From Escherichia coli (GTDB lineage Bacteria; Pseudomonadota; Gammaproteobacteria; Enterobacterales; Enterobacteriaceae): DNA of 64,000 nucleotides. The position numbers are program-made. The stretch lies in NCBI RefSeq assembly GCF_003334405.1, contig NZ_QOWM01000015.1; one strand, given 5' to 3'. Every line of letters begins with the position of its first letter. Position 1 is the stretch's first letter. Positions 23,101 to 26,100 of the stretch are shown in pieces.

Positions 23101-26100
23101 AAATACGCTTCGTGCAGAAGTTCAGAAAAATGGGGTTAGCTGTCAGCACAAATACGCTTCGCGCAAAAAAAAATCAGGAGGCTAAGTTGATCGGGAAAGC
23201 GAACACAGATACATGATTTACCCGTTTGCTGACTACGGCTCACGCCGGGACCCTTCGGAAAAACCCTTTCTGCTTCAGCGAGTGAGTGCTGCGGGCACTC
23301 AGAGGCGCTGCCAGGGAGACAAAATTAAGTTTTTCAACTGTTTGGTAAAAATAATTAACATTTATAGGTAGTCGGGGCGTAAGCCAGTGCGTAGCACGCT
23401 CTCAAAAAATATTCCTGTGGGTTTCTTATCTGCAATAGGGAAATAACTCAGATAATTGATATATGAAAAAACAATACAATCGGGAAGACACAACTTTAGC
23501 ACAGTAAAAGCTATTTGTATTTATGAGGAATAAAATATATATGAATAATAAAATATTTTTATTTTGCTATTGATTTTAATTTTTAAGATGATAGTACTTA
23601 ATTATAAAAACAAAATAATGGAGGAAATTATGAGTGCTATTAATGTGTTATCTCAGGAGGAAAAATTTATACATGTTGTTGATAAATTTATAACCCATAA
23701 TCACAACGGCGTTAATAACAATGTCTTTTATAAAAAACTTTATGTTCTCTTCGCCGGATATCATCTGAAGTATTTTTATTCACGGGCGCAATATCGCAAT
23801 TCGTGTTATCACGTTGATAATATCATGCAGATGTTTATGGGTGTCGTTTCTACCCTGAAGACCCCTCTGCTCAGGCAACTCGCAAACAGTGACACATTGC
23901 TGCATTGCCTGAATTCGCTCGTGAATTATATTTCAGGCAATCTGGATGAAGCAGAGCACATTTATGCTGATTTACTGGCACAGTATGAAAAGAAACGCAT
24001 TGCACGTTCTCTGGCTTATACACCACCAGGATCCGTGGTCAGGAAAAGACTGTGAGACATCGGAAATGCGCCGGACAAGGCAGAGTATGGCAGAGTGACA
24101 TAAAAGCAGTCGTTTCCCGCAAGATATTACCGGGCATTAAAAAGGCAGGATCCACCGATTTGGTGTCCTGCCTGGCGGGATTATTTTATTGTGGTCTTAC
24201 TTATCAACGACCTGCCAGCCATCATCTGTTTTGACCAGCTTGACAGCCGCTGTGCGTTTTTCGTTATCGACAACAGCTGTTACATTGCATTTATAGCTTT
24301 TATCCGATAGTTTTTCGCAGTCGTGTTTTTTGACTGATTTTAACTTCCGCAGCATGTCAGGCGTGATATCGTTTCTCGCTATGGATTTAACGATGGCATT
24401 CGTCTGCTCCACGACCTTATTCATCGCAGTGTAAATATCCTGCTCAGACGGTTCACTGGTGCAGCCGGTCAGCAAAAAAATGGACGCAATGAGTGTGGTA
24501 AATGCATATGTTTTCATAAAATAATCCCAGACGGTAGAGTACGTTATTGAAAAAGGCCGGTTTTCATCTTGCTGTTGTTTTCAGAGAACGTCCACTTGCT
24601 GACGGTTTCGCCTTTAAATTCGATTTCCAGCGTTTTGGCCTGCGTCTGTGAACCCCCGGTCAGCAGTCCAATCACGGGAATGAATGTGGTGGCATCAAAC
24701 TGATTGTTGTCCATCGAATAAGTCCATTGTTCATTGCCACTATCAAGTGTAGTTTTGGTTTCGGGCTGACCGAATGCGGTAATGATTTCTGATTTCGTTG
24801 TTTTATTTTTGATGATTTTCGACTGCAGACTTTGTGATGTTTCTTTTTTTAGATGCTGGTTGCCTGATGTTGAACAGCCAGAAATAAGTAAAGAAGAAAT
24901 AAAAAACACAGAAATCATGAATCTGTTCATAAGTTTTCTCATATTAATTTTTTATGTTTGCGGTGGTGTGAAATTAATATCATCTTATAAAAACAACTCT
25001 GTCTGCATATTTCTTTTTAATAATGCAGATAAGAATAATGACGCTGGCAAAAAACGTAATGACTGAGGCAGGAGTGCTGCCGGTCAATGAAAACACTAAC
25101 CAGGCGAGAGCTAATGCCACGAATTGAAACAGGAATGCCACACTGAGTGGACTTTCACCATAGGCCACTTTTGCATGGCAACCTTTGCAAACCCGCACAC
25201 CGTGTGGGCTTTGTGTAAAGCAGAAAGGGCAGCTAATCGTTTTATTATCCATCATGACTCCGTAGCCTGATTTAAGGTGATGTATTTTTGAACATTTTCG
25301 ATGAATGAACTGCTTTAGTAAAATTGCTTGTACCGATCGATGGATCTCAGGCGATAGGTTATATCTATTATAGCTAGATTATCGATCTATAAAAACGATC
25401 GATATCTTATTGACTATCACTAAAGTATGGACTAGCTAACTTATGGTGCAGGATGGTTGTTGTTTTTAAATGATTGTTCTTTATTGGTATTTGTTGTCAT
25501 GGGATGACAGGGTGTCAGAATATGTAGGTGGAGGATTTGGTGGAAAGGATGTGCAGTGGCATGTAACAGAGACATGCCTCTGCGCCTGAGAAGTGCCACA
25601 ATATGGACGAGCAATACAAGCCATGAATACAGACGACGCTGGCGGGGTATCTGACGAGCTGTATTGTGCAGATTGCTCCTGAGCTGGATGATACCCACTG
25701 TCTCCTGTTGTCTTTCCAGACGAATTTTTTCTTCAAGCTGATGGATTTTCTCCAGAATCGTTTCCCGGTTTGCAGCCTGCTCTTCAGACTCGCATGATGG
25801 CACTGGCACTGGCACTGGCACTGGCACTGGCACTGGCGCGGTTGTAGGTTCTATTGGCCTCTGGGCTTCTTTCAGTAAACTCAGATGCTCAGGCGTAAAA
25901 TCAATCAGTGCTTGCAGGGAAGACCAGCCATATTTTTTACCCAACTGAGATGCTTTAAAGGCAATACCCTGGTATTGAAATGAAAATCCACTCATTTTAC
26001 CCGTAGTGGCGATATTGGGTTTGCAGGTCACTCCTTCCTGTTCCAGTAAGCGAACAAAGGTTAGTAAATCGGGATGGTGTGTTAATGCATTGTCGAGCAG

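Follow-up and report, generated by a model that had tools for sequence, protein, structure and literature searches.

We analysed a three-gene cassette in a 64,000-nucleotide stretch of Escherichia coli DNA (NCBI RefSeq assembly GCF_003334405.1, contig NZ_QOWM01000015.1), referred to throughout as the window. The genes, called here C, B and A in their order on the minus strand, follow a relaxase gene and encode a predicted zinc-ribbon inner-membrane protein and two predicted lipoproteins. They are genuine genes under purifying selection, and in a family of integrative mobilizable elements of Enterobacterales the cassette is backbone, not cargo. We tentatively favour, short of holding it probable, a role for the cassette as an envelope barrier against incoming DNA in the resident cell, and we weigh this below against a part in mobilization and other possibilities.

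Three genes downstream of a relaxase gene

An earlier reading made from the sequence alone (the sequence-only reading) had described positions 24197-25255 as encoding two small lipoproteins and a zinc-ribbon membrane protein. This description was borne out: the limits coincide exactly with those of three consecutive open reading frames (ORFs), all on the minus strand, two of them with lipoboxes and one with a CPFC-x10-CxxC motif followed by two hydrophobic helices (lengths in amino acids, aa).

24980-25255, minus strand: C, ORF of 91 aa (90 aa in RefSeq)
24544-24942, minus strand: B, ORF of 132 aa (128 aa in RefSeq, which starts at the second Met, 24930)
24197-24517, minus strand: A, ORF of 106 aa

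The gaps between the genes are 37-49 nucleotides (nt) for C and B and 26 nt for B and A. All three are annotated in RefSeq, C under the product name 'hypothetical'. We found 350 homologues of B, 112 of A and 53 of C, those of A and C in Enterobacterales only. The pairwise ratio of nonsynonymous to synonymous divergence (dN/dS) lay between 0.05 and 0.35 in most comparisons (0.05-0.34 for C); one very close pair of A sequences with few substitutions gave 0.56. Given the many homologues, the low dN/dS and the RefSeq annotation, A, B and C are not chance ORFs.

The cassette as island backbone

The order MobC-like gene, relaxase gene, C, B, A and a convergent gene of 141 aa recurs in islands of E. 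coli and Salmonella that differ in their integrase and in their site (ssrA, the mutS-ygbA interval, tRNA genes). As variable cargo, the related islands carry among others NACHT/RelA-SpoT, Kiwa, BamHI restriction-modification, retron Eco8, HerA/DUF4297, Hxs and PLD/AAA genes. The island family extends to Salmonella, Klebsiella, Citrobacter, Pectobacterium, Erwinia, Pantoea and Yersinia, and carries many anti-phage systems. Identity to the window in related islands falls to 49-60% for the relaxase, and is 69-77% for B, 47-83% for C and 41-79% for A.

Synonymous divergence (dS) between the window and one related island (L014) was 0.62 for the relaxase gene, 0.28 for C, 0.06 for B and 0.04 for A; between the window and another (L023) it was 0.23 for C, 0.48 for B and 0.86 for A. 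Since dS differs so sharply between adjacent genes of the same pair, the alleles have been reshuffled by recombination.

A species scan with one genome per species, based on relaxase alignment, gave 76 loci. We counted the 47 species-level loci in which a conserved non-coding element that follows the relaxase gene (described below) was present together with at least 1.5 kilobases (kb) beyond it. C is there replaced in many loci by a member of one of two other families, X and Y, and the architectures were as follows.

C-B-A: 11 of 47 loci (one with a disrupted B)
C alone: 1 of 47
X alone: 13 of 47
X-B: 7 of 47
X-A: 4 of 47
X with another lipoprotein: 1 of 47
Y alone: 3 of 47
Y-B: 3 of 47
Y-B-A: 3 of 47
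A alone: 1 of 47

Thus the first gene after the relaxase gene encodes an inner-membrane protein (C, X or Y) in 46 of the 47 loci, C itself in 12, and at least one lipoprotein (B, A or another) is added in 30, in mixed combinations. The adjacency of the cassette to a mob module, which the sequence-only reading had remarked on, is therefore a stronger link than was noted there: the relaxase gene and a MobC-like gene lie directly upstream of C in the window, and the inner-membrane slot behind the relaxase gene is all but constant in the family. In a minimal island of about 10 kb, C is kept and B and A are lost.

Families X and Y are unrelated to C; examples of replacement in the slot are loci L035, L041, L042 and L045. 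X proteins have 190-225 aa, two N-terminal helices and a DUF4755 domain, which was their only family match and of which the literature searched makes no mention. Y proteins have 221-265 aa and C-terminal helices, the long forms also having the N-terminal helix pair of X, and gave no family match; the 221-aa slot protein of locus L011 had no plasmid, NCBIfam or PHROG match. The type of inner-membrane protein largely follows relaxase clade. At equal identity of the relaxase N-domain (0.70-0.85 bin), similarity of the relaxase C-terminal domain was 0.55 in pairs of the same type versus 0.35, a covariation that is a weak trend and is confounded by phylogeny (shared descent).

Protein C, a predicted inner-membrane zinc-ribbon protein

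C opens with a predicted CPFC-x10-CxxC zinc ribbon whose cysteines (C9, C12, C23 and C26) are invariant in 22 homologues. Zinc ribbons are recognized by two conserved CxxC knuckles that stand 10-20 residues apart; C has such a pair, and it matched the Pfam family DZR (double zinc ribbon) weakly (E 0.0066). Hydrophobic stretches at about residues 38-58 and 62-82 form a two-helix transmembrane hairpin, beyond which the protein ends in the tail KKKYADRVVFIR. Because both termini are basic and the cysteines must stay reduced, we predict that C is an inner-membrane protein with its zinc ribbon and its basic tail in the cytoplasm. The reading frame of C is intact even in loci where annotators missed the gene.

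A tblastn search of plasmids found relatives of C, at 31-38% identity, on elements of 30-45 kb from Klebsiella, Citrobacter and Enterobacter. There the C-like gene is not adjacent to a relaxase gene, and the elements carry DotA/TraY, type IV pilin and methylase genes; as a clue to function these genes gave no lead. Three records of 30-45 kb from Klebsiella and E. coli (L008, L009 and L022), which are filed as linear plasmids and typed in PLSDB as non-mobilizable, combine DotA/TraY, type IV pilin, H-NS, ParA, DUF927 and methylase genes with a C-like zinc-ribbon membrane protein.

Proteins A and B, predicted lipoproteins

We called A and B lipoproteins by rule, looking for a basic n-region, a hydrophobic h-region, an L-x-[GS]-C lipobox and a conserved cysteine. 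In A the signal peptide MKTYAFTTLIASIFLLTG is followed by Cys 19, with the lipobox LLTG and Thr at position +2; this cysteine is invariant in 25 homologues. In B the signal peptide MNRFMISVFFISSLLISG is likewise followed by Cys 19 (128-aa form), with the lipobox LISG and Ser at +2, and the cysteine is conserved in at least 90% of 50 homologues. Both sequences also fit the Sec/SPII lipoprotein rule [LVI][ASTVI][GAS]C, so that the signal peptides on which the sequence-only reading depended are present by rule, and the mature proteins would have 88 (A) and 110 (B) aa. Sorting of lipoproteins is decided by the +2 residue under the Lol-avoidance rule, and Ser or Thr predicts the outer membrane in E. 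coli. Because +2 is Thr in A and Ser in B, both should be periplasmic, lipid-anchored proteins, and the outer membrane is their expected place in E. coli. Homologues of A of the Pectobacterium, Rahnella and Erwinia type (L036, L041-L043, L054 and P0197-P0207) have Asp at +2, which in E. coli is an inner-membrane retention signal; the A of the window has Thr.

The structural model of A (pLDDT 77) consists of one helix and a four-stranded sheet, of DUF4878/NTF2/cystatin-like form, and by structural match A has the helix and curved antiparallel sheet of the small lipoproteins of the DUF4878/NTF2-like class. Its Cys 67 and Cys 77 are invariant and probably form a disulfide in the periplasm. Some homologues of A are named 'cell wall-binding protein' by NCBI/RefSeq, and tblastn found no match to A on plasmids.

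B is named 'SEN1984 family lipoprotein' in RefSeq (WP_001079017.1, 100% identical by tblastn). No model in NCBIfam release-20 matched B, so that this library did not reproduce the rule behind the family name. Its match to phrog_3135 (5e-24; function unknown) was the only significant family match for A, B or C in the libraries searched, and its family comprises 1097 cluster representatives at 50% identity. B itself matched the Pfam family BamE (PF04355) at E 0.17-0.19, and 26 of 50 family members did so at E<=0.001; hhalign of the B family profile against the window's own BamE gave a probability of 89.7% (E 1.8e-6). The AF2 model of B (pLDDT 84.6) found BamE chains as its top PDB matches in Foldseek, with a target-normalised TM of 0.53-0.63 and E of at least 0.04. 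The models thus suggest that B has a BamE-like fold and is a BamE-fold paralogue, and B and BamE (SmpA/OmlA) also have in common a G-x-T-x(3)-V...G-x-P...W-x-Y pattern. B differs from BamE in a conserved hydrophobic insertion of 14 residues (AxNFIPxVGLF) that BamE lacks and in being carried by mobile elements, with the true bamE at 41464-41805 of the window. We considered B as a BamE orthologue and subunit of the BAM complex, which would be a single chromosomal copy in the conserved ratA-yfjF-bamE-recN setting and lack the insertion; the island location of B, its 14-residue insertion and the true bamE elsewhere rule this out.

Outside islands, homologues of B were found by tblastn at 32-44% identity (38-41% for three loci that were re-measured). 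In the lambdoid phage PhiR26_1 a homologue lies directly downstream of cI, in the position at which lambda carries rexAB. In a Klebsiella phage a homologue forms an insert in the tail-gene region. Burkholderia conjugative plasmids of the MPF_F type also carry homologues, and the plasmid matches listed were mostly from Burkholderia, with none from an IncC-type host. These placements are most naturally read as pointing to expression while the element is resident, and relatives of B occupy positions typical of genes expressed by resident prophages.

A conserved element between the relaxase gene and C

The spacer of 185 base pairs (bp) between the relaxase stop and the C start is largely taken up by a non-coding element.

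25268-25420, no strand: dyad-symmetric non-coding element of about 150 bp

In an alignment of 12 loci 77 of 154 columns of the element were invariant, while dS of the flanking genes was saturated for the same pairs; the element is far more conserved than neutral sites. It contains three invariant GATC sites (25335, 25384 and 25397), and since its profile matches itself on the reverse strand it has dyad symmetry. Among the 55 Enterobacterales loci with sequence beyond the relaxase stop, the profile was found 0-95 nt after that stop in 54; in the 55th (L093) the relaxase gene is disrupted, and the element lies about 50 nt past the last relaxase fragment. It accompanies X and Y as well as C, profile positions of about 11-100 being common to all and positions 100-153 specific to C loci.

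The element has the features by which a candidate origin of transfer (oriT) is recognized, namely a cis site linked to the relaxase gene and inverted repeats. The region upstream of mobC, the usual place to seek an oriT, is poorly conserved (12 of 376 columns invariant). The element is thus a candidate oriT and/or operator, placed downstream of the mob genes rather than upstream. It showed no similarity to plasmid oriT sequences. Exact matches of 23 nt (E 0.1) lie in intergenic DNA of Klebsiella IncFIB/HI1B plasmids and of one small plasmid; they are not at a known oriT, and we took them as chance. A search of Rfam with 23400-27400 gave nothing relevant, and single-strand folding of the element yielded only modest hairpins (z -1.6 to -1.8). 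As usually defined, the leading region is the side of an oriT opposite the relaxase (bioRxiv 10.64898/2026.01.13.699239). If the element is an oriT, the cassette, which lies on the side away from the relaxase gene, would be in leading-region position.

The mob module, its transcription and the island

The cassette is flanked by the following features.

26667-27074, minus strand: MobC-like accessory gene, directly upstream of the relaxase gene and overlapping its start
25441-26670, minus strand: relaxase gene with an HxDxxxxHxH motif (MOBP-like) and a variable Pro-Val repeat linker
24165-24181, plus strand, and 24156-24144, minus strand: terminator-like hairpins (consensus scan), between A and the convergent gene
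23630-24055, plus strand: convergent gene, 141 aa, no family match

The consensus scan found no minus-strand terminator between mobC and A, and on this account the stretch from mobC to A (27074 to 24197) is consistent with a single transcription unit. The convergent gene accompanies the cassette in every related island that was inspected, and is part of the backbone: in L005-L007, L010, L012 and L014-L021 its product has 43-89% identity, and the gene adjoins A, or C where A and B are missing.

The relaxase, named 'relaxase/mobilization nuclease domain-containing protein' in RefSeq, matched the NCBIfam models TraI_MobP (3.6e-14) and Bacteroides MobB (1.2e-15), both below cut-off, and its alignment has invariant His and Asp columns. 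Its linker (Pro-Val)n is encoded by a tandem TGGCAC repeat at 25798-25839 that varies in length by 6-nt steps among E. coli strains, matches to a query of 1634 nt spanning 1640, 1646, 1652, 1664 and 1676 nt. The MobC-like gene keeps its position in related islands (48-84% identity); its product had no family match in NCBIfam or PHROGs.

Many E. coli strains have chromosomal DNA that matches the window segment at 99.9-100% identity. The cassette is part of a low-GC island of about 20 kb beside ssrA (tmRNA, 39455-39817), with its integrase gene at 38059-39432 and no secretion-system gene. Of 5426 complete E. coli genomes, 274 (about 5%) have the A-B-C region, always in the chromosome, and 371 (about 7%) have the relaxase region. 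Next to mobC is an ankyrin-repeat gene (27276-28229); such genes recur in related islands and in the 30-45 kb Klebsiella elements with C-like genes. The cargo at 30369-33388 is a NACHT-domain gene followed by a RelA/SpoT-domain gene, likely an anti-phage pair. Adjoining the integrase gene, at 34441-37782, are a tandem pair of ParB/RepB-like genes and a gene for a serine recombinase; together they may be a module that maintains or partitions the island once it is excised. The whole window contains no second copy of the ssrA 3' end (39455-39490; up to 3 mismatches in 20 or 36 nt), and the far boundary of the island is therefore unmarked by a recognizable direct repeat. Further left in the window are remnants of CP4-57 type (ypjA and others).

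Searches for known exclusion and defence families

The sequence-only reading had proposed looking for homology to TraT-, Exc- or Cor-like proteins; none was found in Pfam, NCBIfam, PHROGs or PADLOC. A, B and C matched neither TraT (PF05818), TraS, Eex, TrbK, ExcA nor MbeD/MobD in Pfam, NCBIfam or PHROGs, and PADLOC-DB v2 gave zero families for these three proteins, the MobC-like protein and the 141-aa neighbour. A match of A to Cor (phrog_1119, E 1.4e-4) covers only residues 7-40, that is, the signal peptide and lipobox, and was set aside. Sfx was discarded as an identity for A or B on size (286 aa) and on its plasmid hosts, the sequences themselves not having been compared. The literature searched held no experimental characterization of A, B or C and no account of the cassette architecture or of the downstream element, and on BamE-like prophage lipoproteins and this island family it offered nothing usable.

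What the cassette may do

Our tentatively favoured reading is that the cassette acts in the island-carrying cell as a two-layer barrier to DNA crossing the envelope. C, or X or Y in its place, would block translocation at the inner membrane in the manner of TraS, Eex or T4 Imm, and B and A, in the manner of TraT, Cor, Llp or Sp, would form the other layer, at the outer membrane or in the periplasm; B might bind partners in the BAM complex through its BamE-like face. The barrier could be directed at phage or at conjugative DNA, and each of these targets, taken singly, is doubtful and neither is preferred. We favour a barrier because non-homologous occupants of one slot and shuffled alleles typify exclusion and immunity loci, because copies of B in phages can have no part in conjugation, and because precedents (MbeD, Sfx) exist on mobilizable elements. 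It also suits genes that are under selection and whose products have predicted envelope locations, and islands whose variable cargo is anti-phage defence. By analogy, the B homologue in the rexAB position and the traS-traT-like layout of the cassette would fit a protective role in the resident cell. The sequence-only reading had offered these proteins as candidate exclusion or immunity factors; the context agrees with that proposal, no homology does, and we keep the function as conjecture.

Several points weigh against a barrier. Neither sequence nor profile comparison tied A, B or C to a known family of exclusion, superinfection exclusion or defence in the libraries above, and the modelled folds of A and B appear generic. 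An island that excluded the secretion system of its helper would stand in the way of its own further spread. Among the 47 species-level loci many islands do without B, A or both, and the consensus scan found no sigma-70 promoter ahead of C. Finally, the inner-membrane protein is nearly universal and follows relaxase clade, as would be expected at least equally of a core function in transfer.

That last point leads to the main rival, a real, though minority, possibility: a mobilization accessory on the donor side, in which C, X or Y would tether the complex of relaxase and oriT to the inner membrane or to the coupling protein of a helper, and B and A would modify the mating channel or its outer-membrane side, with MobB of RSF1010, MbeB/MbeD of ColE1 and VirB7-type lipoproteins as analogues. 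It explains the near-universal presence of the inner-membrane protein and its link to the relaxase at least as well, and it avoids the paradox of excluding one's helper. For C taken singly, a part in the donor is about as plausible as a protective one. The inner-membrane protein comes first after the relaxase gene and the oriT-like element (46 of 47), C is kept without B and A in the island of about 10 kb, prediction puts the soluble domains in the cytoplasm, and no minus-strand terminator separates mobC, the relaxase gene, C, B and A. The clade-following of the inner-membrane type, with relaxase C-terminal domains at 0.55 versus 0.35 (0.70-0.85 bin), points the same way, but this covariation signal is confounded by shared descent. 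The accessory role would moreover require three non-homologous proteins to serve the same homologous relaxase and element, and it leaves aside both the C-like proteins (31-38% identity) found on Klebsiella elements away from any relaxase and the phage homologues of B, which cannot act in conjugation.

Cargo for envelope fitness or virulence is unlikely. The lipoproteins would then alter serum resistance, stress tolerance or the assembly of outer-membrane proteins, as lambda Bor, Iss and TraT do, with C unrelated to them. The predicted BamE fold of B agrees with this, as do its relatives, which are spread among phages, plasmids and islands; one of these is the Salmonella pathogenicity island ROD21, in which deletion of SEN1982 is reported to attenuate organ colonization (PMC10655114). 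But free-floating cargo would not be expected to keep a fixed place beside the relaxase gene and the element, or to be paired so constantly with an inner-membrane protein over 47 loci, and the variable cargo of these islands is located elsewhere. A function in early establishment is improbable. If the element is an oriT, C, B and A would enter the recipient first, and might serve early anti-defence, membrane-linked second-strand synthesis or recircularization. The cassette does adjoin the element on the side opposite the relaxase gene, and leading regions are enriched in early-expressed genes, yet the known leading-region functions (anti-restriction, SSB, SOS inhibition) are cytoplasmic, not lipoproteins (PMC11541004), and the idea presupposes an oriT that is so far a candidate. 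That the three are immunity proteins against an envelope-targeting toxin (a colicin, a CDI toxin or an effector of a type VI secretion system) is very improbable, as the inspected loci hold no toxin gene linked to the cassette and the fold match is generic.

Returning to the barrier, an elaborate form of it is decidedly unlikely in our estimate. In this form the element would be an oriT not recognized before, lying downstream of the relaxase gene, and the slot on its far side would house a mix-and-match exclusion system with C, X and Y as interchangeable inner-membrane specificity subunits and outer-membrane lipoproteins as optional additions; B, as a BamE mimic on the BAM complex, would block DNA arriving by phage or mating channel, and homotypic or element-specific recognition would spare the helper.

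As an exclusion or barrier module, the cassette would give a major class of defence islands a first layer of defence that is part of their backbone, and would join the very few exclusion systems that mobilizable elements are known to have. If instead C links the relaxase to the transfer machinery of a helper, it would explain how these islands hitch a ride. Either way, the element of about 150 bp is a concrete candidate oriT, with which the mobility of the island family becomes directly testable.

Comparison with known systems

The closest likeness in layout is to the F plasmid, in which the gene order is traS then traT. There adjacent genes on a transfer-related module encode a small hydrophobic inner-membrane protein and then a lipoprotein, as is predicted here, and the inner-membrane partner varies between relatives. 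TraS acts in entry exclusion at the inner membrane and TraT, an outer-membrane lipoprotein, in surface exclusion (PMC11493245). The differences are that no sequence or profile similarity joins the two sets, that TraT, with about 244 aa, is much longer than mature A and B (88-110 aa), and that the island, having no secretion system of its own, offers no cognate donor target such as TraG or TraN. Exclusion-type factors that are encoded by, or common to, mobilizable elements provide a second likeness: MbeD in the mob region of ColE1, and the Sec/SPII lipoproteins Sfx on mobilizable elements, are precedents (PMC11493245), although Sfx of IncC plasmids has 286 aa and is encoded beside traN.

Phages supply a further set of small lipoproteins or two-helix inner-membrane proteins that are expressed by a resident element, namely the superinfection-exclusion proteins Cor, T5 Llp, T4 Imm and Sp and lysogenic-conversion lipoproteins such as lambda Bor. 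The B homologue beside cI in a lambdoid phage recalls these; the difference is that only the Cor profile matches, on the signal peptide of A, and nothing else does.

In the segment SEN1980-SEN1984 of ROD21 of Salmonella Enteritidis a relaxase gene is likewise followed, in this order, by genes for a small 'membrane protein' (SEN1981A, 264 nt), a lipoprotein (SEN1982) and an exported protein (SEN1984). The last, which lies a few kb from the ROD21 relaxase gene, is the namesake of B's family, and for it only a Phyre2 prediction of a BamE-like structure exists; the colonization phenotype reported for ROD21 concerns deletion of the lipoprotein gene SEN1982 (PMC10655114). ROD21 differs in its MOBQ relaxase, TraD homologue, type IV pilin genes and tRNA-Asn site; SEN1982 (180 aa) is not A, and SEN1981A is likened to C by description only. 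We therefore did not assign the window's island to the EARL/ROD21 islands: relaxase and site differ, and only the family name of B comes from ROD21. Envelope proteins of exclusion type are already known from mobile elements, and C, B and A would, as predicted from their sequences, belong among them; what appears new is their architecture, an interchangeable inner-membrane protein with optional lipoproteins behind a relaxase gene and its conserved element.

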